Shown one piece after another: positions 31,741 to 63,721 of a stretch of 64,000 nucleotides of DNA. The number at the start of each line of letters is the position of its first letter. Positions within the stretch are counted from its first letter, which is position 1. Below the pieces are notes generated by a model. The model saw nothing but the letters and a program-made list of their open reading frames with translations, was not told the origin of the DNA and ran no database searches. The translations under genes were made by a program, and so were the position numbers. The DNA comes from an uncultured Rhodospirillales bacterium (GTDB taxonomy: Bacteria; Pseudomonadota; Alphaproteobacteria; Acetobacterales; Acetobacteraceae): contig CAIMWH010000063.1 in the NCBI GenBank assembly GCA_903845065.1, positions 40,003 to 104,002 of the forward strand, in the 5' to 3' direction.

Positions 31741-33284
31741 ATATCCGAATCCGGGCTCGCCGCCTTGCCCCGCGCCATGTAGTCGATCAGCGCCTCATCC
31801 ACCCCGGGATCGATCGCCGGCGCCTGATACTCCGCCAGCGTCCGCTTCCAGATCGCATTGGCGCGCACCACCGCATCCTGCGCCCCCTCCGCCTCCCACT
31901 GCTCCACGCTGTTGTTGTCAGCCACCGTGGAGCGGAAAAACGCCGTCTCGAAATTGGCCTGCGTATGCGCGCAGCCCAGGAAATGGCTCCCCGGACCCAC
32001 CTCGCGAATGGCATCCATCGCCTGCCCGTTCTCCGACACATCCACCCCATTGGCGAACGCGTGCCACATCCCGGCCTGGTCGCAATCCATCACGAACTTC
32101 TCGTAGCTCAGCGCCAGCCCGCCTTCGAGCCACCCCGCCGCATGCAGCACGAAGTTCACGCCCCCCATCATGGTCGCGTTCATGGTGTTGGCCGACTCAT
32201 ACGCCGCCTGCGCATCCGGCACCTTGGACGCGCACAACCCGCCGCCCGACCGGAACGGCACCCCCAGCCGCCGGGCCAGCGCCGCCATCACGTACAGCAC
32301 CAGCGAAGGCTCCGGCGTGCCAAACGTCGGCGCGCCCGACTGCATCGAGATCGACGAGGCAAAACTTCCCAAAATCACCGGCGCCCCCGGATTGACCAGC
32401 TGCGCAAACGCCATCCCCGACAACGCCTCGGCCAGCGTCACCGTACACGTCCCCACCACCGTCACCGGAGACATCGCGCCGGCGAGGATGAACGGCGTAG
32501 TCAAATTGGCCTGGTTGTTGCGCGCATAAACCTTCAGCGCCCCCAACATGGTGGCATCCCAGGTTAACGGCGAATTGGCGTTGATGAGGCTGGTCATCAC
32601 CGTCTTCGGCCGCCCGGTATCCGCGTCCATCCAGTCATCGCCAAACAGGATGCGGGACATGTTGACGCTGTCCTCCGCCCGCTCCGGCGCCGTCACCGAG
32701 CCCATGTACGGCTTGTCGCTCCACCGCATATGGGCATACAGCATGTCGTAGTGCCGCTTGTTGACCGGCAGATCCACCGGCTCACAAATCGTCCCGCCGG
32801 AATGGTGCAGGAACGGCGAGGCATAGGTCAGCTTCACGAAATTGCGGAAATCCTCGATCGTCCCGTAGCGCCGCCCACCATCGAGATCGCGCACGAACGG
32901 CGAGCCATAGTTCGGCGCGAACACCGTGTTCGCCCCGCCCATCACCACCGAACGCGCCGGATTGCGGCCATGCTGCACATAGGTTCGCGGCGCGTGCTTA
33001 TGCACCAACCCGCGGCACAGCCCGCGCGGGAAATGCACCCGCTCACCCCGCACATCCGCCCCGGCCCCGCGCCACAATTCCAGCGCCTCCGGATCGCCCT
33101 TGAAGTCGATCCCGACCTCCTCCAGCACCGTCTCGGCGTTGTTTTCGATCAGCGCCAGCCCCTCCTCGCTCAGCGCCTCGTACGGCAGCAGCTTGCGGGT
33201 GATGAAGGGCACGCTGTCGATCGCATGCGCCATGCGGGCAGCCCGCTTGGCACCGCGGCCGGAACGACGGGGAGCATCGGACAT
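31737..33284 (-). CDS. trimethylamine methyltransferase (MttB) superfamily protein, non-pyrrolysine type (quaternary-amine methyltransferase candidate)
   Basis: Uninterrupted 515-aa ORF with no in-frame TAG. The family-typical N-terminus is LSEEGLALIENNAETVLEEVGI, and the body is long and conserved. The start shares one base with the upstream stop (TGATG). Confidence 0.85.
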   Translation of the reverse strand: MSDAPRRSGRGAKRAARMAHAIDSVPFITRKLLPYEALSEEGLALIENNAETVLEEVGIDFKGDPEALELWRGAGADVRGERVHFPRGLCRGLVHKHAPRTYVQHGRNPARSVVMGGANTVFAPNYGSPFVRDLDGGRRYGTIEDFRNFVKLTYASPFLHHSGGTICEPVDLPVNKRHYDMLYAHMRWSDKPYMGSVTAPERAEDSVNMSRILFGDDWMDADTGRPKTVMTSLINANSPLTWDATMLGALKVYARNNQANLTTPFILAGAMSPVTVVGTCTVTLAEALSGMAFAQLVNPGAPVILGSFASSISMQSGAPTFGTPEPSLVLYVMAALARRLGVPFRSGGGLCASKVPDAQAAYESANTMNATMMGGVNFVLHAAGWLEGGLALSYEKFVMDCDQAGMWHAFANGVDVSENGQAMDAIREVGPGSHFLGCAHTQANFETAFFRSTVADNNSVEQWEAEGAQDAVVRANAIWKRTLAEYQAPAIDPGVDEALIDYMARGKAASPDSDI

Positions 33285-35746
33285 CAGGCGGTCTCCACTG
33301 GGGGGGACTCATGAAGCAAAGCGAAATCGCCGCTCGCCATCTGGCGCAGCACGGCGGCAATGGCGGCAAACGAACGCGCGGCTACCCGGCTTTCGTGCCG
33401 CGCCCGCAGATAGCCATGCACCAGGCCAGGCTCATTGCGAAACAACGTCGGCACGCCCGAGGCCGCCAGCAGCGCCGCGTAATCCTCGCCATCCTGCCGC
33501 AGCGGATCGATCCCCGCCGACACGATGGCGGCCGGCGCCACGCCCGACACATCGCGCGCGCATAATGGCGCAAACTCCGGATCATCCTTCGGAATCCGGT
33601 GCTCGCCCCCGGCATACAGCGCCCGATAGCCGCCCGAATGCCGCACCGGCAGCAGCGGCGCATCGAGATTGCGCTCGCCGTTGCGGAACGGATCGCCGCC
33701 GAGGCCCGGATAAATCATCACCTGCCCCACCGGCTGCGCATCGCCCAACCGCTTGAGCCGCAAGCACAACGCGGCGGTCAAATTCCCCCCCGCGCTATCC
33801 CCGCCCACAATCACCCGCCGCCCGCGCGCCAGCAGATACCGATACGCCGCCTCGGTATCATCGAGCGCCGCCGGGTAGGCATGCTCGGGCGACAGCCGGT
33901 AATCGAGCGAAACCACCTCGATCCCCGCATCGCGCGCCAGTTCCGCACACACGTCGTCATGCGATTCCAACCCGCCCACCACATACCCGCCGCCATGTAG
34001 ATACAGCAGCGTCACATCGCTCTTCACGCCCTGCATCGCATAATGCCGCACCGGCATGCCGCGCTCCGGCCCACGCGCCGCGATACTGAAATCGGTGGCG
34101 ACAATCCCCTCCGGCCGCGGCGCGCGAAACGCATCGCACATCCGGTTGTAGATCGCCCGGTTCTCCGCCGGCCCCGCCGCATTGGTGGTGTCCGGATAGA
34201 ACGACTCCGTCCGCGCGATGAACGCCGTCACCTCCGCATCCAGCATCCGCGCTAGCACCGGGCTCGCCACCCCGCGCGGCTTGGCCACGCCGATCGCCCG
34301 CCCCGCCGCCTCCGGCCGCGCCAGTTTCGCCTGCGCATCGCGGATTGCCCGGAACCTGGCGGCAATCTCGGCCGGCGCCGCGCAAGCCCGCCCGGCCGCC
34401 ATGTCCACATGCAGCAGCATATGCTCGCCCGAGGCCAGCAGCGCATCCGTCTTGCCGTGGCGAATTTCGTGGAACAACCGCACCCGCTTGTCGTCCGCAT
34501 CCAGCACCAGCGTGGTGGTGTAGTACGGATCGAGCCCAGGGATTTCCTTGCGATGCACGATATGGGTCTCGGCGGTAAAGTAGCTGTGCCCCGCCGCCAC
34601 GTAATCGAGGTCCACCCCCACCAGCTTCAGCAGCGCATCCGTCGCATTGGTGCACACCTGGAGGTAGCGGCTCTCCGTCATGTGCTTGTTGTAGTCCACC
34701 CAATCCGGCCCCACGATGCCATGGTGCAGCCGCAACGGCTGCGACAAGTCATCCGGCAGCGCCGCCTTGGCATGCCCGCTTGCATACAGCCGCGCCTCAT
34801 ACGCCGCCAGCACCGCCCCGGCGCCATAATCCTGCGTCTTCAGCGCCTGCATCACCGCCACCAGGCAGTCATCCCGCTTGCGCTCCAGCGCGCGATGATC
34901 GAGCCCGCCGGCCTGCGCGTCCGACTGCGCGGTCACCTCTTCGATCAGCGCCTCGGTCAACTCCGGCACATCCATCAACTTGGTCCACGGCAACTGCAAC
35001 GCCGGGCCGAACTGCGCCATGAAATGCCGCATCCCCGCCTCGCCGCCTGCCAGCCGGTAGATCAGGAACGTCCCCATGAAGGACCAGCGCAGCCCCGCGC
35101 CATAACGAATAGCGTCATCGATCTCCTCGGTCGTCGCCACCCCATCATTGACCAGCCACAACGCCTCGCGCCACAGCGCCTCCAGCAGCCGATCGGCGAT
35201 GAACCCGTCGATCTCCTTGCGCACATGCAGCGGCTTCATGCCGATGGACGCATAGAATTCCCGTGCCCGCGCAATCGTCTCGGGCGCCGTCTGCCCCCCC
35301 CCGCACACCTCCACCAGCGGCAGCAGATACACCGGATTGAATGGATGCCCCACGGTGAACCGGCCCGGATACCGCATCCCCGCCTGCAACTCGGTCGGCA
35401 ACAGGCCGGAGGTGGAGGAGCATATCAACGCATCCGGCCGCGCATGCGCGTCGATCTCGTTGAGAATCCGCTGCTTCAAATCCACCCGCTCGGGGGCGGA
35501 CTCCTGGATGAACTCCGCCTCCCGCACCGCCTCGGCGATACTCCCGGCAAACCGCAGCGAACCGCGATTCCCCGTCGGCGCCAGCGTCAGCCGCGCATAG
35601 GCCCGCTCGGCATTGGCGATCACCTCGCCCAGCGCCCGCTCGGCCTCCGGCGCCGGATCGAACACCACCACGTCATGCCCGTTGATCACCAGCCGCGCCG
35701 CCCAGCCGCCGCCGATCACCCCGCCGCCGATAACCGCGCAGATCAT
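33284..35746 (-). CDS. lcdH: tri-domain fusion: L-carnitine 3-dehydrogenase + hotdog-type thioesterase + alpha/beta-hydrolase fold-3 esterase
   Basis: 820 aa. aa 1-~320: GGGVIGGGWA Rossmann motif, GHPFNPVYLLPLVEV, DRLLEALWREALWLV and AGGEAGMRHFMAQFGP, as in carnitine dehydrogenases. aa ~335-478: hotdog-like (VDYNKHMTESRYLQ...). aa ~501-805: starts MLDAEVTAFIA and has HGGG (584-587), GDSAGG (649-654), DPLRQD and HGY. Confidence 0.85.
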   Translation of the reverse strand: MICAVIGGGVIGGGWAARLVINGHDVVVFDPAPEAERALGEVIANAERAYARLTLAPTGNRGSLRFAGSIAEAVREAEFIQESAPERVDLKQRILNEIDAHARPDALICSSTSGLLPTELQAGMRYPGRFTVGHPFNPVYLLPLVEVCGGGQTAPETIARAREFYASIGMKPLHVRKEIDGFIADRLLEALWREALWLVNDGVATTEEIDDAIRYGAGLRWSFMGTFLIYRLAGGEAGMRHFMAQFGPALQLPWTKLMDVPELTEALIEEVTAQSDAQAGGLDHRALERKRDDCLVAVMQALKTQDYGAGAVLAAYEARLYASGHAKAALPDDLSQPLRLHHGIVGPDWVDYNKHMTESRYLQVCTNATDALLKLVGVDLDYVAAGHSYFTAETHIVHRKEIPGLDPYYTTTLVLDADDKRVRLFHEIRHGKTDALLASGEHMLLHVDMAAGRACAAPAEIAARFRAIRDAQAKLARPEAAGRAIGVAKPRGVASPVLARMLDAEVTAFIARTESFYPDTTNAAGPAENRAIYNRMCDAFRAPRPEGIVATDFSIAARGPERGMPVRHYAMQGVKSDVTLLYLHGGGYVVGGLESHDDVCAELARDAGIEVVSLDYRLSPEHAYPAALDDTEAAYRYLLARGRRVIVGGDSAGGNLTAALCLRLKRLGDAQPVGQVMIYPGLGGDPFRNGERNLDAPLLPVRHSGGYRALYAGGEHRIPKDDPEFAPLCARDVSGVAPAAIVSAGIDPLRQDGEDYAALLAASGVPTLFRNEPGLVHGYLRARHESRVAARSFAAIAAVLRQMASGDFALLHESPPVETA

Positions 35747-36636
35747 GCCGCACCGCGCAGCTTGAGCTTGCGCCGCACATCCGCCGGGCTCATCACCCGC
35801 ACATTCATCCCCTCCAGGATGGTCACCGCCCGCTCCACCAGCGTCCCGTTGGTCGCCTTCTGCCCGCGCGACAGCCAGATATTGTCCTCCAGCCCCACCC
35901 GCACATTGCCCCCCGCCAGCGCCGCCATCGCCACATACGGCAACTGGTTGCGCCCGATCGAGAACGCCGAGAACACCGCCCCCGGCGGCAGGTTATGCAC
36001 CAGCGACAGCAGCGTCAGCGGATCATCCGGCGCCCCGTATGGAATCCCCATGCACAACTGGATCATCACGGGATCATCGATCAACCCCTCTGACACCAGT
36101 TGCTTCGCCAGCACCAGGTGCCCGGCATCGAACACCTCGATTTCCGGACGAACCCCCAGCGCCTGCACCCGCCTCGCCATCGCCCGCAGCATCCCGGGCG
36201 TGTTGGTCATCACATAGTCGCCCTCGGCGAAATTCATCGACCCGCAATCGAGCGTGCAGATCTCCGGCAGCAGGTCGGTGACATGCACCACCCGCTCCTC
36301 GGCACCCGCCATGTCAGTGAACCGCATATCGAGCGGCAACGGCGTGTCCGCCCCGCCCAGCACCAGGTCCCCGCCCATCCCGGCGGTCAGGTTGATCACC
36401 ACATCGGTATCGGATGCCCGTATCCGCTCCACCACCTCGCGATACAGCGCCGGATCGCGGGATGCCGCACCCGTCTCGGGATTGCGCACATGAATATGCG
36501 CCACCGCCGCCCCCGCCTTGGCCGCCTCGATCGCCGAAGCCGCGATCTGCGCCGGCGTGATCGGCACATGCTCCGATTTGTCGGTGGTAGCGCCGGCGCC
36601 GGTGATGGCGGCAGTGATGAAAACGTCCCAGTTCAT
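35743..36636 (-). CDS. BKACE-family (3-keto-5-aminohexanoate cleavage enzyme-like, DUF849) protein; dehydrocarnitine cleavage candidate
   Basis: ATG 36636 (MNWDVFITAAITGAG...). Motifs: HIHVRNPETG and VGLEDN. Its stop overlaps the lcdH start as ATGA. Confidence 0.85.
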   Translation of the reverse strand: MNWDVFITAAITGAGATTDKSEHVPITPAQIAASAIEAAKAGAAVAHIHVRNPETGAASRDPALYREVVERIRASDTDVVINLTAGMGGDLVLGGADTPLPLDMRFTDMAGAEERVVHVTDLLPEICTLDCGSMNFAEGDYVMTNTPGMLRAMARRVQALGVRPEIEVFDAGHLVLAKQLVSEGLIDDPVMIQLCMGIPYGAPDDPLTLLSLVHNLPPGAVFSAFSIGRNQLPYVAMAALAGGNVRVGLEDNIWLSRGQKATNGTLVERAVTILEGMNVRVMSPADVRRKLKLRGAA

Positions 36637-36649
36637 GATCTTGTCCGTT

Positions 36650-39157
36650 TCAAGCGCGCAAACGCGCGTTGTCAGCATCGAAAGGCGAATCCGCGATCAC
36701 CGTCGCCCGGTGCGGCACACCCAGTATCTCCACCGTCAGTTCCGAACCCACCTCCCCCAGGTCCGGCCGCACGAACGCCAGCGCGAGGGATTTCCCCAAC
36801 CGCCAGCCATACCCGCCCGACGTCGTCCGCCCCACCAGCGCCCCCCCGGCATAGATCGGCTCGGACCCGCGCGCATCGGCATCCGTCACCCCATGCACCT
36901 CCAGCGTCACATACCGGTTGGCAAACCCGCGCTCGCGCCAGGCCACCAGCCCATCGCGCCCGACAAAATCCCCCTTGTCGAGCGCCACGAACCGATCAAG
37001 CCCCGATTCCAGCGCCGCATACTCGATCGACAACTCCCGCCCCACCAACCGGTAGGACTTCTCCAGCCGCAGCGAATCCATCGCCCGGATGCCAAACGGC
37101 TTCAGCTCCAGGTCCGCCCCCGCCGCCATCAGCCGGTCAAAAATGTAGTTCTGAACCTCGATCGGATGATGCAACTCCCAGCCAAGCTCGCCCACATAGT
37201 TCACCCGCAACGCCCGCGTCGTCGCCGCGCCCACATTGATGGTCCGGCCGGACAGCCACGGGAACGCCTTGTTGGACAAATCCGCATCCGTCACCCGCGC
37301 CAGCAAATCCCGCGCCCGCGGCCCGGCGATCACCAGCACCCCATGCTGCGTCGTCACCTTGCGCAGCGTCACGCTGCCATCGGCCGGCACCGCCTTGCTG
37401 AAATAGTCCCAGTCATGGCTCTCCAGCGCCCCGGCCGACACGATGTAGAACCGGTCCGCCGCCTCGCGATAGACCGTGAACTCCGTCCGCACCCCGCCCT
37501 GCGGCGTCAGGTGATAGCACAGCCCGATCCGCCCCACCTTCTGCGGCAGCCGCCCCGAAACGAACCCATCGAGCCATGCCGCCGCCCCCGGCCCCGACAA
37601 CTCGAACTTGGCGAACGCGCTCATATCGAGCAGCCCGACCTTCTCATGCACATGCCGGCACTCGCGCCCGACATGCTCGAAGTAGTTCGAGCGCCGGAAA
37701 CTCCACTTCTCCACAATCCGCCCATCGATCGGGGGCGCATGGTTCTCATTGAGCAGCACATCGGTCTTGCCCAAGGCCGCCGCATCGAGCGCATAGCCCG
37801 CCGGGGCGAACCAGTTCGGCCGCTCCCAGCCAAACACCGAGCCGAACACCGCCCCCAGCGCCTTCATCCGCGAATAGCACGGCGTCTGCCGCATCGGCCG
37901 CGCCGCAGTGCGCTCCTCATCGGGATAATGCACGGTGAAGACCTTGGCATAGGCCTCCTCGTTCTTCTCCTTGAGATACCCCCGCGTGGCATACGGCCCG
38001 AACCGCCGCGGATCGACCCCCATCATATCGACGGTCGGCTCCCCATCGACGATCCACTCCGCCAACTGCCACCCGGCCCCGCCGGCCGCGGTAATCCCGA
38101 AGCTGTGCCCCTCGTTGAGCCAGAAATTCCGCAACCCCGGCGCCGGCCCCACGATGGGCGAGCCATCCGGCGTATAGGCGATGGCGCCGTTATAGACCTG
38201 CTTCACCCCCACCTCGCCGAACGCCGGCACCCGGGCAATCGCCGTCTCGATATAAGGCGCCAGCCGCTCCAGATCCTCCTGGAACAACTCATACTCGGAG
38301 CCGTCATCCGGCCCGTCCACATAACAAGCCGGCGCCCCGATTTCATACGGCCCCAGCAGCAGCCCGCCGTTCTCCTCGCGCATGTACCACGACGAGTCCG
38401 ACTCCCGCAGCACCCCCATCTCCGGCAGCCCCTGCCGCCGCCGCTCCACAATCGCCGGATGCGGCTCCGTCACGATATACTGGTGCTCCACCGGCACCAC
38501 CGGGATTTCGATCCCCACCATCGCCCCGGTCCGCCGCGCGAAACTCCCGGTCGCCGAGACGATGTGCTCGCACACGATATCGCCCTTGTCGGTCCGCACC
38601 TGCCACTCGCTGGAGGGCAACCGGGAAATCCCCGTCACCGTGGTATACCGATTGATCTCCGCCCCCATCGCCCGCGCCCCGCGCGCCAGCGCCTGCGTCA
38701 GATCGGCCGGCTGGATATACCCGTCCTCGGGATGCTGAATGGCACCGAGCAACCCCTCGAAATTGCACAGCGGCCAAATGTCCTTGACCTCGCTTGGCGT
38801 CAGGAACCGCACATCCACCCCGATGGTCTTCGCCACCCCGGCGTAATAGCGATACTCGTCCATCCGGTCCTGCGTGCGCGCCAGGCGAATATTGCTCACC
38901 TGCCGCAGCCCGACGTTCTGCCCGGTCTCCGCCTCCAGCCGCTTGTAGAGCGCCACCGAATACTTGTGGATCTGCCCCACGGAGTAGCTGAGGTTGAACA
39001 ACGGCAGCAGCCCCGCCGCATGCCAGGTGGAGCCCGAGGTCAATTCCTTGCGCTCGATCAGCACGCTGTCGGTCCAGCCCTTCTTGGCCAGATGATACAA
39101 GGTGCTGACGCCGACAGCGCCGCCACCGATGACCACCGCGCGGGCATGGGTTCTCAT
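36650..39157 (-). CDS. dimethylglycine/sarcosine dehydrogenase family protein (FAD DAO domain fused to GcvT-type folate-binding domain)
   Basis: 835 aa. GAGGAG lies upstream of ATG 39157. The N-terminus has VVIGGGAVGVSTLYHL and STWHAAGL. The C-terminal aminomethyltransferase-like region has YVGELGWELH. Confidence 0.9.
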   Translation of the reverse strand: MRTHARAVVIGGGAVGVSTLYHLAKKGWTDSVLIERKELTSGSTWHAAGLLPLFNLSYSVGQIHKYSVALYKRLEAETGQNVGLRQVSNIRLARTQDRMDEYRYYAGVAKTIGVDVRFLTPSEVKDIWPLCNFEGLLGAIQHPEDGYIQPADLTQALARGARAMGAEINRYTTVTGISRLPSSEWQVRTDKGDIVCEHIVSATGSFARRTGAMVGIEIPVVPVEHQYIVTEPHPAIVERRRQGLPEMGVLRESDSSWYMREENGGLLLGPYEIGAPACYVDGPDDGSEYELFQEDLERLAPYIETAIARVPAFGEVGVKQVYNGAIAYTPDGSPIVGPAPGLRNFWLNEGHSFGITAAGGAGWQLAEWIVDGEPTVDMMGVDPRRFGPYATRGYLKEKNEEAYAKVFTVHYPDEERTAARPMRQTPCYSRMKALGAVFGSVFGWERPNWFAPAGYALDAAALGKTDVLLNENHAPPIDGRIVEKWSFRRSNYFEHVGRECRHVHEKVGLLDMSAFAKFELSGPGAAAWLDGFVSGRLPQKVGRIGLCYHLTPQGGVRTEFTVYREAADRFYIVSAGALESHDWDYFSKAVPADGSVTLRKVTTQHGVLVIAGPRARDLLARVTDADLSNKAFPWLSGRTINVGAATTRALRVNYVGELGWELHHPIEVQNYIFDRLMAAGADLELKPFGIRAMDSLRLEKSYRLVGRELSIEYAALESGLDRFVALDKGDFVGRDGLVAWRERGFANRYVTLEVHGVTDADARGSEPIYAGGALVGRTTSGGYGWRLGKSLALAFVRPDLGEVGSELTVEILGVPHRATVIADSPFDADNARLRA

Positions 39158-39191
39158 GGTTCGTCTCCTCAGGCGGTCATCGTTAAGCGGG

Positions 39192-40850
39192 TCATCGTTG
39201 GGAAGTCTGCCAGTCCGCCGCAGCGTAGAATGGCTGGTTGGACGGCGCCATCGGGGCGCGCCCGAGAATATGGTCCGAAGCCTTCTCTCCGATCATGATG
39301 CTGGGCGCATTGAGGTTCCCGGTCGTCACCTGCGGCATGATGGAGGAATCGACCACCCGCAGCCCATCCACCCCGATCACCCGCGTCTCGGCATCAACCA
39401 CCGCCATCGGATCATCCGCCCGCCCCATCCGGCAGGTGCCGCACGGATGATAGGCGCTCTCCACCTTGGCGCGGATGAACGCATCGATCGCCTCGTCCGT
39501 CGTCACATCGGCGCCAGGCTGGATTTCCCGCCCGCGATACGGATCGAACGCCGCCTGGCCGAAAATCTCCCGCGTCAGCCGCACCGCCGCCCGCATCTCC
39601 ACCCAATCGTCGGGATGGCTCATGTAGTTGTAGCGGATCACCGGCTTGGCCAGCGGATCGGGCCCCGCCAGCCGCACATGGCCCCGGCTTTTCGAGCGCA
39701 TCGGCCCGGCATGGGCCTGGAACCCGTGCCGATCCGCCAGCGCCGAGCCGTCATAGGCAATCGCCAGCGGCAGGAAATGATACTGGATATCGGGCCACGG
39801 AACCCCGGCCCGGCTGCGAATGAACCCGCAGGATTCGAAGTGGTTGGTCGCCCCCAACCCGTCCCGCCGCAACAGCCAGCGCGCCCCGATCATCGCCTTC
39901 GCCAGCGGACTCATGGAGGAAAACAGGGTGATCGGCTGGGTGCACTCCACCTGGAAATAGAACTCCAGGTGATCCTGCAAATTCTCCCCCACCCCGGGCC
40001 GGTTCACCAGAATAGGGATCTCATTGGCCCGCAACTCCGCCGCCGGCCCGATGCCCGAAAGCTTCAGCAATTGCGGCGAATTGATCGGCCCCCCGGCCAA
40101 AATCACCTCCCGCGCCGCCGTCGCCACCTGCTCCGTCCCACCGCGCAGGTACCGCACCCCGGTCGCCCGCCGGCCGACGAACTCGATCCCGGTCGCCATC
40201 GCCCCGGTGCGGATTTCCAGGTTCTTGCGCCGGCGGATGGGATGCAGATACGCCACCGCCGCCGAACACCGCTCCCCCTTTCGCACCGTCATATCCATCC
40301 GCCCGAACCCCTCCTGGCGGAACCCGTTGACGTCCTCCGTCACCCCGTACCCGGCCTGCCGCCCGGCCTCGATCCAGGCGCGATACAGCGGATTGGCGAG
40401 CGGCCCATACGCCGTGGACAGCGGCCCCTCGTCGCCCCGATACGCATCCCCCCCCTCGGCGCGGCTTTCGGCCCGGCGGAAATACGGCAGCACATCGGCC
40501 CAGCCCCAGCCCTGCGCCCCTTGCTCCCGCCACCCCTCGTAATCCATCGGATTGCCGCGGATATAAACCAGCCCATTGATCGAGGAGGACCCGCCCAGCA
40601 CCTTGCCGCGCGGCGTATGCATCCGCCGCCCGTTCAGGTTGGGCTCGGGCTCCGTCTCGTAGAACCAGTTGTAGCGCTTCATATTCATCGGGATGGACAA
40701 CGCCGAGGGCATCCGAATGAAGATCGACCCATCCCCGCCGCCCGCCTCCAGCAGCAGCACGCGGTTGCGGCTATCCGCGCTGAGCCGGTTGGCCAGCACC
40801 GAGCCGGCCGAGCCGGCGCCCACGATCACATAGTCGAAGCTTTCTGCCAT
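39192..40850 (-). CDS. betA: choline dehydrogenase (GMC oxidoreductase)
   Basis: ATG 40850 ([23 protein letters not shown]...). It is collinear with E. coli BetA by eye: [59 protein letters not shown]. Confidence 0.9.
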
Positions 40851-40932
40851 CGATCCCGCGCATTTCCACCCCGCGGGCGTTAACATCATCCGCCCCCGGC
40901 ATCAAATCGCCGGACCAAAGCCGAGGAAACCC

Positions 40933-44795: not shown

Positions 44796-44871
44796 AAGCG
44801 GTTTGCCGCCCACCCCATTCCGGGGCATGTTTCGCAATCGAAGATGGTTTCGCGGGGGAGCGAATTCACCA

Positions 44872-45600
44872 ATGGCGCAATCCACAGTCACCGCGGGGCT
44901 CGACGAGGCGGCACACCGCCTCATCGGCGGCAACCGCGTGCTGCGCTACATCCCCCCCGATGACCTCAAGGCCCTGGTCCGCCGCTCCAGCCTCATCACC
45001 GTTGACGCCCGCGAGGCGCTGTTCACCCAGGGTGACGCCGGAACCGACGTTCTGGTGGTCCTGCAAGGCTACATCAAGCTCTCTTCCACCACCGTGGGCG
45101 GCCGTGAGGCCATTCTCGATATCGCGGGCCCCGGCGCGGTATTCGGCGAAATCGCGGTCCTGAATGACTGGCCACGCTCCGCCAGCGCCACCGCCCTCTC
45201 CCCCTCGCGCCTGCTCTCTATCAGCGGCGCCTCCTTCATCCAGGCCCTGCTGCGCGCCCCCGAGGCCCTGCTCGCCACCGTCCGCCTGCTCAGCGAGCGC
45301 CTGCGCACCGCCACCGAACAGATGACCGACGCGGTGGACCTCCCCGCCCCCACCCGCGTCGCCAAGGCCCTGATCTACCTCGCCGCCCTGCACTCCAGCG
45401 CGGCCGACGGCGGCCTGCGGATCGAGTTCCAGCTCTCCCAGCGCGAGCTCGGCGGCCTCACCGGCCTCACCCGCGAAAGCATCAACAAACACCTCGCCGC
45501 CTTCCGCGATGCCGGCTGGATCCGCATGTCGGGCCAGGATATCGCCATCCTCAACCTGGCCGCCCTGCGCCAGGACATCGACGCCCGCGAACTTCAATAG
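44872..45600 (+). CDS. Crp/Fnr family transcriptional regulator
   Basis: ATG 44872. The cNMP-binding beta-roll contains GAVFGEIAVLNDWPRSASA. The C-terminal HTH is LSQRELGGLTGLTRESINKHLAAFRDAGWI. There is no N-terminal Fnr-type Cys cluster. Confidence 0.85.
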   Translation: MAQSTVTAGLDEAAHRLIGGNRVLRYIPPDDLKALVRRSSLITVDAREALFTQGDAGTDVLVVLQGYIKLSSTTVGGREAILDIAGPGAVFGEIAVLNDWPRSASATALSPSRLLSISGASFIQALLRAPEALLATVRLLSERLRTATEQMTDAVDLPAPTRVAKALIYLAALHSSAADGGLRIEFQLSQRELGGLTGLTRESINKHLAAFRDAGWIRMSGQDIAILNLAALRQDIDARELQ

Positions 45601-45619
45601 CGCCCAAAGGACCCGTACG

Positions 45620-47017
<1,398 letters not shown>

Positions 47018-47043
47018 TCCCTCGCATTACAATTTTGACACCC

Positions 47044-47059
47044 TGTGAATGCATTCATA
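47044..47059. promoter_or_regulatory. CRP-like operator candidate TGTGAATGCATTCATA
   Basis: It matches TGTGA-N6-TCACA at 9 of 10 half-site positions. Its core TGAATGCATTCA (47046-47057) is a perfect 12-bp palindrome. It lies immediately 3' of a TTGACA hexamer (47035-47040) and about 100 nt upstream of the repeat-protein ATG. Confidence 0.4.
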
Positions 47060-47156
47060 CTGGTATGGACGGCTCGGCGTCATTCTGCGTTCACCAGATG
47101 AGCAGGAACGAGTTGCTCGGACCTGGCAGAGAATGAACGCAAACAGGAGAAGAACG

Positions 47157-47852
47157 ATGAACAAGACCATTTTGCTCGCCACTGCCGCGATCGCCCTGGC
47201 TCTCGCCACCCCCGCTTTCGCCCAGACCGCCGCCAACGCCGGTTGCAACCGTGCGCCGACCATGGCCGGCGCGTCGGGCAGCGAAGCCCCGAAGCTGGCC
47301 GGCGCGTCGGGTAGCGAAGCTCCGAAGCTGGCCGGCGCCTCGGGCAGCGAAGCCCCGAAGCTGGCTGGCGCCTCGGGCAGCGAAGCTCCGAAGCTGGCTG
47401 GTGCCTCGGGCAGCGAAGCTCCGAAGCTGGCCGGTGCCTCGGGCAGCGAAGCTCCGAAGCTGGCTGGCGCCTCGGGCAGCGAAGCTCCGAAGCTGGCCGG
47501 TGCCTCGGGCAGCGAAGCCCCGAAGCTGGCTGGCGCCTCGGGCAGCGAAGCTCCGAAGCTGGCCGGTGCCTCGGGCAGCGAAGCCCCGAAGCTGGCTGGC
47601 GCCTCGGGCAGCGAAGCCCCGAAGCTGGCCGGTGCCTCGGGCAGCGAAGCCCCGAAGCTGGCTGGCGCGTCGGGCAGCGAAGCCCCGAAGCTGGCTGGCG
47701 CCTCGGGCAGCGAAGCCCCGAAGCTGGCCGGTGCCTCGGGCAGCGAAGCTCCGAAGCTGGCCGGTGCCTCGGGCAGCGAAGCCCCGAAGCTGGCCGGCGC
47801 CTCGGGCAGCGAAGCCCCGAAGCTCGCCTCGGCCGCCTCGCCCTGCCCCTGA
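47157..47852 (+). CDS. secreted repeat protein: signal peptide + 17 x AGASGSEAPKL
   Basis: ATG 47157 follows AGGAGA. The signal peptide is MNKTILLATAAIALALATPAFA. Then come 17 identical 11-aa repeats and the tail ASAASPCP. A rho-independent terminator follows the gene. Confidence 0.75.
   Translation: MNKTILLATAAIALALATPAFAQTAANAGCNRAPTMAGASGSEAPKLAGASGSEAPKLAGASGSEAPKLAGASGSEAPKLAGASGSEAPKLAGASGSEAPKLAGASGSEAPKLAGASGSEAPKLAGASGSEAPKLAGASGSEAPKLAGASGSEAPKLAGASGSEAPKLAGASGSEAPKLAGASGSEAPKLAGASGSEAPKLAGASGSEAPKLAGASGSEAPKLASAASPCP
47265..47825 (+). repeat. 17 head-to-tail copies of a 33-bp unit (in frame)
   Basis: I delimited the units by hand at 47265, 47298, ... 47793. The consensus is gcYggYgcSTCgggYagcgaagcYccgaagctS. 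There are no spacers, so this is not a CRISPR array. Confidence 0.97.
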
Positions 47853-47885
47853 GCCTCGCTTCGGCACCCTAGCCTAAGCGTAATC

Positions 47886-47918
47886 ACCGCGGCGTCTCGC
47901 AAGAGGCGCCGCGGTTTT
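47886..47918. terminator. bidirectional rho-independent terminator between convergent genes
   Basis: The stem accgcggcgtctc (47886-47898) pairs with gaggcgccgcggt (47903-47915), with loop gcaa and one G-U pair. It is followed by TTTT on the plus strand. It overlaps the stop codon of the minus-strand gene. Confidence 0.7.
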
Positions 47919-48624
47919 ACGTGTTGGCCGCCTTGCGCAACGCCTCCAACTCCGCCTGCATCACATCGAGGTTCTGGAACAGCCGGCTCGTCGTCAGTTG
48001 CAGGAAATGGAAGCCGAAATCCGGGTTCTGGAAAATCAACTCCATCACATTCTCATACGTGATCGACAGCAGTTCCCCATCCGCCACGCATTCCAGCGAC
48101 TGCGTCCGCCGCCCGCTCGGCGCCAATAACCCCAACTCGCCGACAAACTGCCCCGGCGGCAACGTCAACCCGATCTCCGTCACCCGGAAACTGCCCGCCA
48201 CGATATAGTGCAGGTCATGCGCCGGCTCCCCCTTGCGGAACAGCACCTCCCCCGCCCGGCATTTGCGCCGCTTCATATAGGGTTTCAGCGACGCCATCGT
48301 GTGATCGCCCTGCGCCGCCGCCCGCACCCGGCGGATCAGCCGCATCATCTGCCAGATCCGTACCGCGTTCAGCGGCACCAGCACCACATGCAGCAGCAGC
48401 GTGGGAAACTGCCCGTGCAGCAGGGCATAGGCGATGAAGCACAAATTGCTCAGCAGCGTCAGCGCCCGCAGCGGGATCATCAACCGCATCATGAGCGACG
48501 CGATCACGAACCCCGCGCCGATATAGCCAGGCACTTCGTCCCACGTGGCATGCGCGGCCAGCGTCGCCCCTATTTCGTGCCACGACACATGCGCGGTCAT
48601 CCACGCCCACGGGTCCATGCCCAT
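47917..48624 (-). CDS. membrane-anchored cyclic-nucleotide-binding domain protein
   Basis: 235 aa. The N-terminal half has about three TM helices. The C-terminal cNMP-binding beta-roll contains FRKGEPAHDLHYIVAGSF...FVGELGLLAPSGRRTQS. No further output domain is present. Confidence 0.8.
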   Translation of the reverse strand: MGMDPWAWMTAHVSWHEIGATLAAHATWDEVPGYIGAGFVIASLMMRLMIPLRALTLLSNLCFIAYALLHGQFPTLLLHVVLVPLNAVRIWQMMRLIRRVRAAAQGDHTMASLKPYMKRRKCRAGEVLFRKGEPAHDLHYIVAGSFRVTEIGLTLPPGQFVGELGLLAPSGRRTQSLECVADGELLSITYENVMELIFQNPDFGFHFLQLTTSRLFQNLDVMQAELEALRKAANT

Positions 48625-48648
48625 CGTTCCCCTTGCCGCCGCGTTCGC

Positions 48649-50544
48649 CTAGCCCTCTGGCATCCCGGCCCGTTGCAGACCTTCCAGGAGATTGGGCGTG
48701 CCCGCCAGATAGCGATCCTTGCGCACATCCGCGAGCGTGCGAATGGCCGGGGTGCCGGCCAGATACCTGTCGAGGTCCGCCCGCGCTTCCGCCGGCATCC
48801 CGCTTGCGCTCTCCGCCGCGATCACCACCAGCAGCGGCCAGTCGAGCGCCCGGGCCGGGCTTTCGGCGATCGCCGCGCGCGCCACCACCACCGCCTCGGC
48901 CCACCGCCCGGTCGCCAGCAGCGCCGTCGCGGTTTGCGCGTCGAGGACGAAATCCGAGTCACCGGAGCGCTTGGCATCCTGGAAACTCGCCAGCGATTCG
49001 GCGAATTTGCCCTGCCCGTGCAGGATCACGCCGATTTCCCGCTGGGTGTCCGCCAGATTGGGGCTGATTTCCAGCACCCGCCGGTTCACCGCCAGCGCCT
49101 GCTCCAGGTTGCCCTGCGCCCGCAGCACATAGGCCTTGGTGCGCAACAGATATACATCGCGCCCGCGCCCCTCCAGCAGCCGGTCCACCGTCCGCCCGGC
49201 GAACGCCAGGTCTCCCTCGCGATCCACCGACCACTCGTTCAGCACCTGCACCACCCGCAGCCGCGCCGCCAGCGACAGTGCCACCGCGTTGGCGGGATCG
49301 AGCGCGATCGCCTGGTCGAGCAGCCCGATGCGCGCCGCGAGGTTCACCCTGGTCAGCGGCAGCACCGCGCTTTCGATCGCCGCCAGATAGTAATCCGTCG
49401 TGTCCAGCGCCGCCGGCCGCTCGCGCCGCGCCCGCGCCACCTCGGCATCGATCATCGCCTGATGCACATCGAGCGCCACCGTGGCCACCACGTCCCCCGC
49501 CGTGTCGCGCGCAGCGGCACGATCGAACGTCAGCGACCAGACCTCGCGGCCCTCCTGGGTCTCGAACAACGAGGCCGCCACCCTGAGCCGCCCGTCCTGC
49601 TCGGCCGCGCTGCCGGTCAGCACGAAATGCACATTCTGCTCGCGCCCGATGGTGCGCGGCTCGGGCGGCCGCCCCTGGTAGCGCGCCGCCGCCGGCACCA
49701 CCGGCCAACCATAATCCGCGGCCACCCGCTCGCCGATATCGCGCGAAATCCGCCCCGCCCCGCCCTCGAACGGCAGCACGATCAAGGAGCCGCGCCGATC
49801 CAGCGCCGCCGGCCGCGCCGGCAACACCGGCACCGCGGCCACCACCGCCGGCCGCGCCCCCGCTCCCACCAGCCACCACCCTGCCGCCCCTGCCAGTGCG
49901 AACACCGCCACCACCCCGGCCACCACCACCCAGCGGCGCGATGACCGCCCCGACAGGCGCCCGCCACCAACAAGGGCTGACTGCGGCAGCACATGGGCGG
50001 GCAATGCCGCGATATCGTCGGCCGAAAGCCCGAACACGCCCACCGCCCGCGCGATATTCTTCACCGTCTGCTCGCCCAGATCGGCAAACGAGATCGACAG
50101 CCGATCCCGCACCTGGTCATTGGCCGAGCGCGAAATGCACACCCCGCCCGGCTCGCACAGCGTTTCCAGCCGCGCCGCCACATTCACCCCGTCGCCAAAG
50201 ATGTCCCCACCATCGATGATGATGTCGCCCACATTGATCCCGATCCGCAGCACGATCCGCCGCGCCTCGGCCACATTGGCGTTGAACCCCACCATCGCCC
50301 GCTGGATCGCCACCGCGCACGCCACCGCGTCCACCACCGAGGCGAACTCCACCATCAGCCCGTCCCCGGCGATCGTCACGATCCGGCCGTTGTGCCGCGC
50401 GATCTCCGGGTCGATCCGCTCCCGCCGGTGCGCCTTCAGCCCGTTGAGCGTGCCGAGTTCATCGGCGCCCATGAGCTGGCTGTATCCGGCGACATCCATC
50501 GCCAGGATTGCCGCCAGCCGGCGCTCGATTCGGGGTGCAGTCAC
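48649..50544 (-). CDS. class III adenylate/guanylate cyclase with TM segment and TPR-like C-terminal region
   Basis: GTG start. The cyclase domain opens ERRLAAILAMDVAGYSQLM and includes IAGDGLMVEF and GDGVNVAARLE. A TM helix follows (WVVVAGVVAVFALAGAAGWWLV), then a long helical-repeat region. Confidence 0.85.
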   Translation of the reverse strand: MTAPRIERRLAAILAMDVAGYSQLMGADELGTLNGLKAHRRERIDPEIARHNGRIVTIAGDGLMVEFASVVDAVACAVAIQRAMVGFNANVAEARRIVLRIGINVGDIIIDGGDIFGDGVNVAARLETLCEPGGVCISRSANDQVRDRLSISFADLGEQTVKNIARAVGVFGLSADDIAALPAHVLPQSALVGGGRLSGRSSRRWVVVAGVVAVFALAGAAGWWLVGAGARPAVVAAVPVLPARPAALDRRGSLIVLPFEGGAGRISRDIGERVAADYGWPVVPAAARYQGRPPEPRTIGREQNVHFVLTGSAAEQDGRLRVAASLFETQEGREVWSLTFDRAAARDTAGDVVATVALDVHQAMIDAEVARARRERPAALDTTDYYLAAIESAVLPLTRVNLAARIGLLDQAIALDPANAVALSLAARLRVVQVLNEWSVDREGDLAFAGRTVDRLLEGRGRDVYLLRTKAYVLRAQGNLEQALAVNRRVLEISPNLADTQREIGVILHGQGKFAESLASFQDAKRSGDSDFVLDAQTATALLATGRWAEAVVVARAAIAESPARALDWPLLVVIAAESASGMPAEARADLDRYLAGTPAIRTLADVRKDRYLAGTPNLLEGLQRAGMPEG

Positions 50545-61761: not shown

Positions 61762-63017
61762 TGCGCCGCGTCCTCTTCCTCCTCGCCAGCGGCGCCCTCG
61801 CGGTCGGCCTCGCCTGGTGGCTCGCCGCCATGCCGGGCGAAGTGACGCTCGATGTCGCCGGCCTCGTGATCGAAACCCGCAGCGGCCTCGCTCTCCTCGG
61901 CGGCATTGTGCTGCTGTTGCTGCTCCTGCTCGCCCTGCGCCTGCTGCTCGCGGTGGTGAACATCCCCGCCACCTTCCGCGCATGGCGCGCCCGCCGCCGC
62001 CGCACCCACGGGGACGCCGCCGTCGCGGACGCCCTCACCGCACTCGCCGCCAATGACGCGGCCGCCGCCCGCAAAGCCGCCACCCGCGCCCGCACCCTGC
62101 TCGGCGACTCCGCCCAAACCCTGCTCCTCACCGCCGAAGCCAACCGCCTCGCCGGGCGTGACGCCGATGCCGCCGCCGTCTACCGCCAAATGGAAGCCCG
62201 TCCCGAGAGCGCCTTCCTCGGCTTGCGCGGCCTGTTCCGCCAGGCCCTCGCCCGCGAGGACTGGGACGATGCCGCCCGTATCGCCAAGCGCGCCGACGCC
62301 GTTCGCCCGGGCGCCTTCTGGTTGCGCGAGGAACGCATCGCACTCGCCGTGCGCATCGGGGACTGGTCGGAAGCCAGCCGCCTCGCCCCCGCCACGGCGC
62401 CCCGCCTCGCCTTCGCCACCGCCGCGGCCGCAGCCACCGTCGACCCCGATCGCGCCCTCAGCCTCGCCAAGCGCGCCTGGAAGGAGGACCGCGGCTTCAC
62501 CCCCGCCGCCCTCGCCTATGCCACCCGCCTGCGCAAGGCCGGCCGCGAGGCAAAGGCGCAGTCGGTGCTGGCCGAAGCCTGGAAGGAATCCCCTCACCCC
62601 GCTTTGGCCGACCTCGCGCTCGCCCCCGTCACCGAGCCTTTGGCCCGCATCGCCGCCGCCACCCGCTTCAGTGCCGGCGCGGCACAGCACGCCGAAACCC
62701 ACTTCCTCCTCGCCCGCCTCACCCTCGCCGCCAACCTGCCCGGCGAGGCCCGCCGCCACCTCTTGGCCGCCCGCACCGCCGGCATGAAGCAGAAGCGCCT
62801 GTTCCTCCTGCTCGCCGAACTCGAAGCCGCCGAGCCGGACCCCACCGCCCAGCGTGACGCGCTCCGCGCCGCCGCCAGCGCCGAGCCCGATCCCGCCTGG
62901 CACTGCGCCACCTGCGGCGCGGTCCACCCGACGTGGCACCCCGCCTGCCCCACCTGCGCCACCCCCGCCACCCTGCGCTGGGGCGGGCAACCCCGACTGG
63001 CCCTCACCGCCCAATGA
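61761..63017 (+). CDS. HemY-like (HemY_N/TPR) membrane protein with C-terminal zinc ribbon
   Basis: The start shares one base with the previous stop (TGATG). It has two N-terminal TM helices, a helical-repeat body, and a C-terminal CATCG-x10-CPTC. Confidence 0.8.
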   Translation: MRRVLFLLASGALAVGLAWWLAAMPGEVTLDVAGLVIETRSGLALLGGIVLLLLLLLALRLLLAVVNIPATFRAWRARRRRTHGDAAVADALTALAANDAAAARKAATRARTLLGDSAQTLLLTAEANRLAGRDADAAAVYRQMEARPESAFLGLRGLFRQALAREDWDDAARIAKRADAVRPGAFWLREERIALAVRIGDWSEASRLAPATAPRLAFATAAAAATVDPDRALSLAKRAWKEDRGFTPAALAYATRLRKAGREAKAQSVLAEAWKESPHPALADLALAPVTEPLARIAAATRFSAGAAQHAETHFLLARLTLAANLPGEARRHLLAARTAGMKQKRLFLLLAELEAAEPDPTAQRDALRAAASAEPDPAWHCATCGAVHPTWHPACPTCATPATLRWGGQPRLALTAQ

Positions 63018-63721
63018 GCCGCGCCGACCGCTCCGCCGAGGCGTGGGACGACCGGGACGCCGAGGACGCCGAATTCACCGATTGCGACTTCAACAGCGTC
63101 GTCTTCGCCGGCACCCGCTTGACCGGCGCCACCTTCACCAACTGCCGCTTCACCGCCTGCCGCTTCACTCACGCCGTGCTGGAGGGCACCCGCTTCGAGC
63201 GCTGCCATTTCGGCACCGCGCAGGACAGCGCCGTGCGCTTCGCCTTTTGCGAAGCCGGCCGCGCCGTATTCGCCGCCTGCGAATTGTCCTTCGCCGCCTT
63301 CGAGCGTTCCGGCCTCTATGATGTGTCCTTCGCCGCCTGCAACCTGCGCGGCGCCCGCTTCTCCGGCGTGGATTTCAGCCGCGCCCTCGGCCGCCGCAAC
63401 GTGGTGACGCGCGCCAGCTTCGCCGGCAGCAATATCGGCCTTGCTGACCTCTCCCGCATCGAACTCCCCGGCGCCATCCTCTCCAACGTGCGCGCCCGCG
63501 AGGCCGACCTCAGCGGCGCCGACCTCACCGGCGCGGACCTGCGGGACGCCGACCTCGGCTTCGCCACCCTGGACGGCGCCCGCATGGCCCGCGCGGATGT
63601 GCGCGGCGCAGAACTCGCGGGGCTCGATATCCGGCGGCTGGCCAGCATGGAGGGGATGATCCTCCAGCCGGCCCAACTGCCCGATCTCGCCGCCGCGATG
63701 GGGCTCGACCTGCGCGCCTAG
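63014..63721 (+). CDS. pentapeptide repeat protein
   Basis: ATG 63014 overlaps the previous stop as ATGA. It contains long runs of the A(D/N)LxG-type pentapeptide pattern (ADLSGADLTGADLRDADLGFATLDGARMARADVRGAELAG). Confidence 0.85.
   Translation: MSRADRSAEAWDDRDAEDAEFTDCDFNSVVFAGTRLTGATFTNCRFTACRFTHAVLEGTRFERCHFGTAQDSAVRFAFCEAGRAVFAACELSFAAFERSGLYDVSFAACNLRGARFSGVDFSRALGRRNVVTRASFAGSNIGLADLSRIELPGAILSNVRAREADLSGADLTGADLRDADLGFATLDGARMARADVRGAELAGLDIRRLASMEGMILQPAQLPDLAAAMGLDLRA

Follow-up and report, generated by a model that had tools for sequence, protein, structure and literature searches.

The closest described analogues of the gene reported here are functional, not homologous. The gene is an open reading frame (ORF) at positions 47157-47852 (+) of a 64,000-nucleotide stretch of DNA from an uncultured Rhodospirillales bacterium (contig CAIMWH010000063.1, positions 40,003 to 104,002; the whole stretch analysed is called the window below), and its product, termed the repeat protein, carries 17 identical copies of the 11-residue unit AGASGSEAPKL behind a predicted signal peptide. 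Multi-copy precursors such as polyubiquitin and alpha-factor are typified by head-to-tail units that are identical in peptide and differ in DNA at synonymous sites only. The repeat gene shares with polyubiquitin, yeast alpha-factor, neuropeptide precursors and the repeat precursors of fungal ribosomally synthesized and post-translationally modified peptides the identical units, the synonymous DNA differences and a variable copy number, whereas those precursors come from eukaryotes, their processing enzymes are known and their products are released, and the terminal Cys residues of the repeat protein argue for an intact chain. Mucin-type secreted variable-number tandem repeat (VNTR) proteins likewise combine a signal peptide, a central Ser/Pro/Ala-rich VNTR and terminal Cys that may polymerise or close the chain, but mucins are very large glycoproteins of eukaryotes whose folded end domains are rich in Cys, whereas the repeat protein is a predicted bacterial envelope protein with a single Cys per end.

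Among bacterial proteins, the Neisseria H.8 protein Lip and the N-terminal domain of Laz are, as is predicted for the repeat protein, small exported envelope proteins made up almost entirely of a short Ala/Glu/Pro-rich repeat, with an 'EAP' core in both, and the Ser-containing repeats of Lip and Laz are targets of O-glycosylation (PMC9239064). They are, however, lipoproteins with a 5-residue AAEAP unit, whereas the repeat protein has a signal peptidase I site, no lipobox, an 11-residue Gly/Ser/Lys/Leu unit and two Cys; no Pfam or NCBIfam family match pointed to homology, and no Neisseria-like protein occurred among the inspected matches of the exhaustive search described below. Flexible linkers (2-oxo-acid dehydrogenase E2, TonB/TolA spacers, the AEAPKAEEAAP string of search match P0250) have the same composition and EAPK-type strings and are expected to be extended and flexible, but linkers join folded domains and drift freely, whereas the repeat protein is 'linker' throughout and conserved residue for residue. 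The Tenebrio antifreeze protein (12-residue coil) and pentapeptide-repeat proteins resemble it in their short, indel-free unit with invariant small residues and in that the best AlphaFold model of the repeat protein was periodic, although the latter has no confident fold, Foldseek match or internal disulfide ladder, and members of 1-4 units exist. The 11-mer repeat of late embryogenesis abundant (LEA) group 3 proteins and hydrophilins gave no Pfam match at E <= 0.1, and two Gly and one Pro per unit would be incompatible with a continuous LEA-type helix. What appears to be new is a family, so far undescribed, of low-complexity repeat proteins with predicted secretion and a Cys-bracketed 11-mer array.

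The repeat gene and its product

The ORF reads MNKTILLATAAIALALATPAFA-QTAANAGCNRAPTM-(AGASGSEAPKL)x17-ASAASPCP followed by a stop codon, and is divided as follows:

47157-47222 (+): signal peptide MNKTILLATAAIALALATPAFA, with n-, h- and c-regions and a predicted signal peptidase I site between AFA and Q, as read from the sequence
47223-47264 (+): mature N-terminal linker QTAANAGCNRAPTM, 14 residues, with the first conserved Cys at 47244-47246
47265-47825 (+): 17 units of 33 bp, AGASGSEAPKL each, from Tandem Repeats Finder (TRF) and unit slicing
47826-47852 (+): tail ASAASPCP and stop, with the second conserved Cys at 47844-47846

An earlier note on this DNA, made from its letters alone, had described the same signal peptide, linker, 17 units, tail and coordinates, and matched exactly on re-reading; its statement that the mature protein has just two Cys, one on either side of the array, was likewise correct. 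TRF returned a single array at 47263-47828 with a period of 33, 17.2 copies, 93% matches and zero indels. No other substantial tandem repeat and no paralogue of the repeat protein was found in the window, and a C-run in a TRF consensus near 56.5 kb was rejected since it was absent from the actual sequence. When sliced from 47265, the 17 units comprised 10 distinct DNA versions but encoded one peptide. The variable columns (3, 6, 9, 15, 24 and 33) all fell on codon position 3 and were all synonymous, with the six positions and the alleles that had been named before. Synonymous changes make up 28 of the 99 possible single-base changes in the unit, and the probability that six of six variable columns would share one codon-position class was 4.2e-4, or 1.3e-3 for any frame. 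In units 5-12, columns 3 and 6 alternated from unit to unit (GCT GGC / GCC GGT), giving a 66-bp higher-order period that is a sign of some expansions in two-unit blocks.

All sequences compared in this study derive from metagenome assemblies. The exact 231-residue product was also present on a separate 6.5-kb contig in the European Nucleotide Archive (ENA), with identical gene order. The longest exact internal repeat was 98 nt both in the window array (47157-47852) and in that of the orthologue L001 described below (L001 6909-7532), so that the array can be resolved by k-mers or reads of at least 99 nt; the same limit is also what a de Bruijn assembler leaves once longer identical runs have collapsed. 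The 98-nt repeat could arise either because mismatches are spaced in steps of 33 bp (3 x 33 - 1) or as a k = 99 assembly footprint, and the 17 copies in the window and 15 in L001 may be minimum counts.

Selection on the unit and concerted evolution of the array

The orthologue L001, on contig CAIYSR010000155.1 of an uncultured Rhodospirillales metagenome-assembled genome, was located via the gene for a convergent cyclic nucleoside monophosphate (cNMP)-binding membrane protein, which served as synteny anchor. At the equivalent position TRF found a 33-bp array of 15.2 copies, and the encoded protein reads MTKTMLFATAALALALATPAFA-QTASVGCVKGATL-(AGASGSEAPKL)x14-AGASGSESPKL-ASAQPCP. Between the window and L001 the flanking cNMP-binding and DegP proteins were 72% identical (synonymous divergence, dS, 1.5 and 0.68, respectively), and the proportion of synonymous differences (pS) in the flanking genes was 0.45-0.65. 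The signal peptide was 82% identical and the mature N-terminal linker merely 31% (nonsynonymous divergence, dN, 0.83), whereas the consensus repeat unit was identical at 11 of 11 residues despite 7 differences in its 33 nucleotides. Because the unit peptide remained intact although its DNA had changed, while the flanks stood at 72% and the linker of the same protein at 31%, the comparison firmly indicates strong purifying selection that acts on the unit peptide in particular. Two serine codons differed in family between the unit consensuses (Ser4, TCG to AGC; Ser6, AGC to TCC), which requires a route through non-Ser intermediates; Gly4 and Thr6, found in other family members, are plausible ones (GGC to AGC, ACC to TCC). 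The earlier claim of selection on the exact peptide thus held for this pair of genomes, but the exactness is limited to this lineage, as family positions 2, 4, 6, 7 and 8 vary.

Units differed by 2.1-2.2 nt within arrays but by 8.1 nt between the window and L001 arrays. Because the within-array distance was far below the between-array distance, and because length variants occur inside 90%-identity clusters, the array gives every indication of concerted evolution, in which unequal recombination or gene conversion would homogenise the units and alter their copy number. Edge unit 1 of L001 retained TCG at Ser4, as is expected of a unit that escapes homogenisation. The earlier proposal that the array is not freshly expanded consequently needs qualification: the copies appear to owe much of their identity to concerted evolution, in an array that undergoes homogenisation and is more than an old, frozen one. 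The polymorphic columns shared by the two arrays (5/5) were discarded as evidence, since the sharing was not significant once limited to four-fold sites (6/56 = 0.11).

Coding strand, translation start and signal peptide

The synonymous pattern within the array had been taken to identify the coding strand. The plus strand was borne out, but that pattern alone was insufficient, since the antisense frame that shares the wobble position was itself nearly invariant in the window array (SFGASLPEAPA, with one E/D variant). All six frames were open across the array, and three shadow ORFs of 291, 258 and 208 residues lie over it, at 47027-47902 (-), 47091-47867 (-) and 47251-47877 (+), respectively; as by-products of the repeat, these could be mis-annotated as genes. 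Between the window and L001, only frame +0 retained the unit at 11/11, while the antisense wobble frame changed to SFGASEPLAPA and the remaining frames kept 5/11. It is this cross-species test, together with the Shine-Dalgarno sequence, the signal peptide and a conserved 3' hairpin, that places the gene on the plus strand.

The Shine-Dalgarno sequence AGGAG lies at 47145-47149, 7 nt ahead of the ATG at 47157. An in-frame ATG at 47049, which would open a 267-residue ORF, was rejected as the start because it has no Shine-Dalgarno sequence and because frame-breaking indels occur there in the leader of L005, a syntenic relative; the apparent amino acid conservation of this extension arises because the leader is conserved at the DNA level. 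The signal peptide has the layout MNK / TILLATAAIALALA / TPAFA before Q, which by reading is that of a Sec/signal peptidase I substrate and is common to all family members. The Sec-type assignment made previously was therefore upheld, with n-, h- and c-regions and the AxA site legible in the sequence and the plan shared across the family. A lipoprotein reading of the '...AGC' string was rejected for want of a lipobox: the Cys lies 8 residues past the AxA site, in the contexts A-N-A-G-C, S-V-G-C or D-A-G-C, in which lipobox position -3 is never L, V or I. Taken together, the AGGAG sequence, the n-h-c signal peptide, the conserved terminator hairpin, the conservation of frame +0 only and the gene call on the second contig establish a plus-strand gene for a small protein with predicted Sec-type export.

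An undescribed protein family

The protein had been reported as belonging to no recognised family, in agreement with our searches: Pfam, NCBIfam and PDB sequence searches gave nothing above noise for the repeat protein, and no paper was found in the literature with the literal unit motif. A search of relatives for the unit, which the earlier note had proposed, yielded L001 and about eight further members, the family as a whole having 1-17 copies; within the arrays of L005 and of a further locus, L018, the units varied mostly at synonymous sites. These sequences define what appears with good support to be a small undescribed family in Rhodospirillales/Acetobacteraceae-like bacteria, with the plan AxA signal peptide, ...GC, [A-x-A-x-G-S/T-E/D-A/S-P-K-L] x 1-17 and ASAxxPC(P/G). 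The members, by unit, copies and tail, include:

P0125 (L001 type, 86 residues): AGASGSEAPKL x3 and AGASGSESPKL, 4 copies, tail ASAQPCP; could be a genuine allele or the result of array collapse
P0141: ASASGSEAPKL, 2 copies, tail ASAAAPCG
P0143 / P0272: AGASGSDAPKL, AGAGGSEAPKL, AGAAGSEAPKL and similar, 2 / 3 copies, tail ASAQPCP
P0171 / P0273 / P0274 / P0275: AAAGGSEAPKL, 3 / 4 / 1 / 1 copies, tail (A/V)SAQPCG
P0132: AGAGGTESPKL, 6 copies, divergent tail with two additional Cys
L005 member (by synteny, directly 3' of DegP): six 10-residue units AAGEGGxAKx, preceded by ...AGC, tail ASAAKPCG

The Cys bracket was present in every member, one-unit forms included, and the Cys before the array was preceded by Gly in almost all of them (D-C in P0132). 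Across lineages, A1, G5, P9 and L11 of the unit were invariant and A3 and K10 nearly so, while positions 2, 4, 6, 7 and 8 took conservative substitutions; position 4 was Gly in half of the lineages, and position 6 was S/T, with P in one unit. The L005 member, whose signal peptide follows the plan of the rest of the family, had 8 of 10 unit codons that varied only synonymously and 2 that were hypervariable, with L, E or Q as unit-end residues; in L018, five unit columns were synonymous and one was E/D. Copy number ranged from 1 to 17, and forms with 1, 3 and 4 units, or with 2 and 3 units, co-occurred within 90%-identity clusters.

An exhaustive phmmer search of 1.84 billion cluster representatives gave 332 matches, mostly compositional, plus the true members. 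Word-indexed HMMER with the whole window protein against 5.8 billion proteins gave 0 matches. In a local phmmer control scaled to a database of that size, the expected score was E = 2.5e-88 for the L001 orthologue and about E = 400 for divergent-unit relatives; thus, arrays of AGASGSEAPKL are absent from the 5.8-billion-protein database, while divergent-unit relatives are beyond the reach of HMMER. Word-indexed HMMER with the L005 protein also gave 0 matches, as did a scan of JGI metagenomes with a two-unit degenerate peptide pattern. A metagenome scan with the conserved leader pattern gave 5 matches, all due to chance (37-58% GC, unrelated sequence, repeat gene absent).

Several other candidates were rejected. 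The matches to Scy (E 7e-4; 17 bits, where the cut-off is 1040), to 'CAP repeat' (E 0.21) and to PExPT-CTERM, the last confined to the region of the signal peptide, all reflected composition. P0129, P0136, P0140, P0184, P0200, P0220, P0240 and P0250 were long, high-identity matches to unrelated low-complexity repeats. P0203/P0276/P0277 (6-7 x AAAEGSEAPKE) were treated as unrelated, as the called ORF has neither signal peptide nor Cys bracket; their unit is intermediate between those of the window and L005.

Leader, candidate promoter and terminator

The gene is preceded by a conserved leader and followed by a probable terminator, with these features:

47044-47059 (strand not assigned): palindrome TGTGAATGCATTCATA, CRP/FNR-type operator-like, 9/10 match to TGTGA-N6-TCACA
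47081-47086 (+): CATTCT, candidate -10 hexamer, invariant in the window, L001 and L005
47093-47156 (+): predicted 5' untranslated region, very highly conserved, with the Shine-Dalgarno sequence at 47145-47149
47886-47918 (+): GC-rich 13-bp hairpin with UUUU, probable intrinsic terminator

The operator-like site was the sole one in the window with <=1 mismatch to the CRP consensus and contains a 12-bp perfect palindrome, TGAATGCATTCA, that is single-copy there; it was kept at the equivalent position in L001 and, at 8/10, in L005. The distance from the start of CATTCT to the palindrome centre was 30, 30 and 31 nt in the three loci. Class II (-41.5) activator sites of the Crp family are expected to have such a spacing of 30-31 nt, and the arrangement is suggestive of a class II Crp-type promoter with a predicted transcription start at about 47093; a strict sigma-70 scan found no promoter. 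The 113 nt 5' of the ATG (47044-47156) were identical to L001 at 101 positions, as were 70 of the 76 nt from the -10 element to the ATG. Since the third codon positions of the adjoining signal peptide were identical at 13 of 22, the leader is more conserved than the coding DNA. Leader blocks CCAGRTGAGC...CCTGG and CAGGAGAA were retained in L005, and a possible 5' hairpin (CCAG...CTGG) is present in the leader. Rfam searches of leader and terminator gave two sub-threshold chance matches, neither within the leader, and consensus folds showed no covariation in the predicted leader helices; hence, no riboswitch or small RNA is claimed.

Downstream, the 73 nt at 47853-47925, hairpin included, had a folding energy of -40.4 kcal/mol (z = -5.5, 0/200 shuffles as stable). 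The stem and T-run were kept in L001 while the flanks diverged, and a strict terminator scan missed the hairpin because it has only 4 T.

Genomic neighbourhood

The gene order is EamA, Crp/Fnr regulator, DegP/HtrA and the repeat gene, then a convergent cNMP-binding gene and a class III cyclase with tetratricopeptide (TPR) repeats. The neighbours of interest are:

44803-45600 (+): Crp/Fnr-family regulator (cNMP_binding + HTH_Crp_2), by inference the candidate regulator acting at the palindrome
45509-47017 (+): DegP/HtrA-type serine protease (Trypsin_2 + 2 PDZ; Pfam), stop codon 27 nt 5' of the palindrome
47917-48624 (-): cNMP-binding membrane protein, convergent, without a helix-turn-helix domain (Pfam; 247 homologues), the synteny anchor
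48649-50544 (-): class III adenylate/guanylate cyclase with TPR repeats (Pfam)

The interval 44803-50544 forms a compact cyclic-nucleotide signalling module around the repeat gene. The cyclase-TPR module adjoined the cNMP-binding gene also in L002, L005 and L010, and in many Acetobacteraceae-like contigs (L002, L005, L007-L010, L012) the cNMP-binding membrane protein had a cyclase, DegP or both as its partner. The order DegP then repeat gene was common to the window, L001 and L005. In L018, however, the repeat gene lay 3' of a short-chain dehydrogenase gene, with a different leader and no DegP neighbour, and no repeat gene was present at 5 of the 8 distinct syntenic loci sampled; thus, the association with the protease and cNMP genes is lineage-specific.

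Some further features were observed at these loci. The L018 gene at 1584-2648 (-), convergent with the family member, gave a borderline Sulfotransfer_3 match (26.0 bits against a cut-off of 27). In L010, from which the repeat gene is absent, a PEP-CTERM-type protein (MIKASAKWSARL...VPEPASIALLGVG...) is encoded directly 3' of DegP at 5056-5262 (-), and in L012, also without a repeat gene, another (...VPEPGTLALLVAG...) lies at 7843-8538 (+) just 3' of the cNMP gene, on the side away from DegP; these may represent a different small envelope protein in an analogous position. L005 carries fragmented DegT aminotransferase, Bac_transf and Polysacc_synt_2/epimerase genes at 233-2335, a few kb from its family member. 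Their fragmentation probably reflects frameshifts of a long-read assembly, and genes of these kinds make bacillosamine-type sugars for O-antigens or for the glycosylation of proteins.

Protein properties and proposed role

The mature protein has 209 residues (~18.6 kDa, pI ~7.9, net charge ~0) and consists of 28% A, 17% S, 17% G, 10% P and 8% each of E, K and L. Its low-complexity, linker-like nature is indicated by the 88% share of disorder-promoting residues, by single-sequence AlphaFold predictions in which 4 of 5 models had a predicted local distance difference test (pLDDT) score of ~40 (the best 58, with a predicted template modelling score, pTM, of 0.45), by the 0 matches of Foldseek against the PDB, and by the EAPK-type strings that also occur in linkers of unrelated proteins.

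We tentatively favour, as a reading somewhat short of probable, an exported, disulfide-bracketed, mostly unstructured low-complexity polymer that displays a repeated short motif. On this proposal signal peptidase I would cleave between AFA and Q and the protein would remain in the cell envelope, where the mature chain, composed mainly of Ala, Gly, Ser and Pro, would form a zwitterionic, flexible and mostly unstructured polymer. The Dsb system would oxidise the two terminal Cys, to each other or to neighbouring chains, and an intramolecular disulfide would close the array into a loop, shielding both ends from periplasmic exoproteases. The unit, with its fixed core G-S/T-E/D-A/S-P-K-L-A, could then act as a multicopy short linear motif for a putative envelope partner or modifying enzyme, with copy number setting valency or length. 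Expression in this lineage would probably be from the gene's own cyclic-nucleotide/Crp-dependent class-II-type promoter beside DegP, a view of regulation based on the leader identity of 101/113, the uniqueness of the palindrome in the window, the constant CATTCT spacing and the adjacent Crp, cyclase and cNMP-binding genes. The Crp-type promoter and the DegP neighbour also suggest a role linked to envelope quality control or stress.

A number of observations weigh against this proposal. The Uversky charge-hydropathy value of 0.478 against a boundary of 0.415 fell on the 'folded' side, although it is not decisive, and the best AlphaFold model was strictly periodic (EEE--E), with strands on K-L-A and an array pLDDT of ~63. 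The earlier suggestion of a disordered polymer therefore stays plausible, favoured by composition but met by an indecisive charge-hydropathy value and by one periodic beta model among five. Conservation at 11/11 residues, Gly, Ala and Ser included, would be no less expected of a structural repeat or of a bioactive peptide released by processing; disordered spacers normally keep composition, not each residue. In addition, the disulfide is deduced solely from the conservation of two Cys, the CRP-like site is statistically not unusual by itself, L018 has no DegP/Crp context, and the repeat gene is missing at most of the DegP loci sampled.

Alternative explanations

The protein could instead be a polyprotein precursor, cut at each junction between K-L and A, plausibly by the adjacent HtrA/DegP, into up to 17 AGASGSEAPKL 11-mers that would serve as periplasmic or extracellular signals or as protease-activating ligands ending in C-terminal -PKL, which we consider unlikely. 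The array does combine identical units with synonymous divergence in the manner of multi-copy precursors, the (P/A)-K-L-A junction is the most conserved feature of all unit types, including the L005 10-mer, and a DegP-type gene lies directly 5' on the same strand in three loci; moreover, the cleavage sites favoured by HtrA proteases have non-polar residues, and peptide fragments activate DegP according to a 'molecular ruler' model, both of which fit (PMC3169616). Retention of both Cys in every member, even those of one unit, nevertheless suggests that it is the uncut chain that functions, and the variable L005 unit ends (L/E/Q), the family member in L018 without a protease neighbour, the 5 of 8 syntenic loci without the gene and the absence of a linked receptor or exporter gene all count against processing. 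A more elaborate form, which we regard as rather improbable, would make the protein a polyprotein pheromone under Crp/cyclic-nucleotide control, cut processively by HtrA between K-L and A, with the 11-mers acting as signals or as self-amplifying -PKL ligands of the PDZ domains of the protease. Compatible with the polymer reading, yet doubtful to a similar degree, is an O-glycosylated mucin-like or H.8-like carrier in which the unit Ser residues would be multivalent PglL/PglO-type acceptor sites. The acceptor rule for such glycosylation is a Ser in an Ala/Pro-rich low-complexity region of an exported protein, a description that AGASGSEAPKL fits (PMC9239064); position 6 is Ser or Thr throughout the family save for one unit with P, both Ser4 and Ser6 were restored after the codon-family switches, and DegT, Bac_transf and Polysacc_synt_2 genes lie a few kb from the L005 member. 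Conversely, the L005 unit AAGEGGxAKx contains zero Ser/Thr, position 4 is Gly in half of the lineages, and no Wzy_C/PglL-type gene or glycan-pathway cluster was found in the window, which is weak counter-evidence as it covers 64 kb only.

A folded beta-solenoid rod, with one tight coil per 11-mer, an inner Leu ladder, Gly/Pro corners and Cys caps, appears very unlikely. It would account for the periodic EEE--E pattern, K-L-A strands, array pLDDT of ~63 and pTM of 0.45 of the best AlphaFold model, and the invariant or nearly invariant A1, A3, G5, P9, K10 and L11 and the indel-free unit length are typical of structural repeats. However, AlphaFold over-predicts solenoids for perfect repeats, a tendency that counts against this low-confidence single-sequence prediction, as do the remaining four models at ~40, the lack of a structural neighbour in the PDB by Foldseek and the 10-residue unit of one relative; members of 1-4 units would be unable to form a stable solenoid, so this fold cannot be the common denominator of the family. 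Finally, the locus might be a neutral feature or an artefact, whether a recently expanded functionless VNTR within an ORF that is not a gene, a product of the assembly or a gene encoded on the other strand. The open frames across the array and their long shadow ORFs, the almost constant antisense wobble-sharing frame in the window, the longest internal repeat of exactly k-1 at k = 99 and the existence of the 86-residue, 4-unit version of the L001 protein would all be in keeping with it. This reading is already largely refuted and exceedingly improbable, as the unit is kept at 11/11 across genomes at dS 0.7-1.5 while every other frame is altered, the signal peptide, Shine-Dalgarno sequence, terminator and Cys bracket are kept in ~10 independent assemblies, and the identical 231-residue product occurs on a second contig.

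Wider context in the window

The window is ordinary chromosome (hemC/D/Y, tsaD, gpsA, murJ, amtB, transporters, betaine/choline catabolism), and no mobile-element signature was found in it. A cluster resembling glycine-betaine/choline catabolism at 31740-40889 includes an MttB-family methyltransferase (757 bits), a dimethylglycine/sarcosine-oxidase-like protein (DAO + GCV_T) and a GMC oxidoreductase, and a 902-residue fusion of 3HCDH, thioesterase and Abhydrolase_3 domains is encoded at 33287-35992 (-). A pentapeptide-repeat protein (Pfam Pentapeptide, 93 bits), of an unrelated repeat class, is encoded at 62858-63718 (+), just 3' of hemC-hemD-hemY.

Implications

The repeat gene offers a clean natural case of a perfect tandem peptide array held by selection while its DNA drifts and homogenises, and is useful for studying the interplay of concerted evolution and purifying selection in bacteria. 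If the protein is only a flexible filler, its interest is mainly evolutionary. The G/S/A/E/P-rich, overall uncharged sequence resembles engineered 'PAS/XTEN'-type polymers, of which it would be a natural periplasmic version with possible biotechnological interest. If the polyprotein pheromone were true, the gene would represent a prokaryotic counterpart of polyubiquitin/alpha-factor-type precursors. For the poorly studied uncultured alphaproteobacteria that carry it, the gene adds a previously undescribed Cys-bracketed repeat family with predicted export, and a new envelope mechanism would come to light if the unit were shown to carry glycans, to be processed into a peptide or to act as a ligand of the protease.

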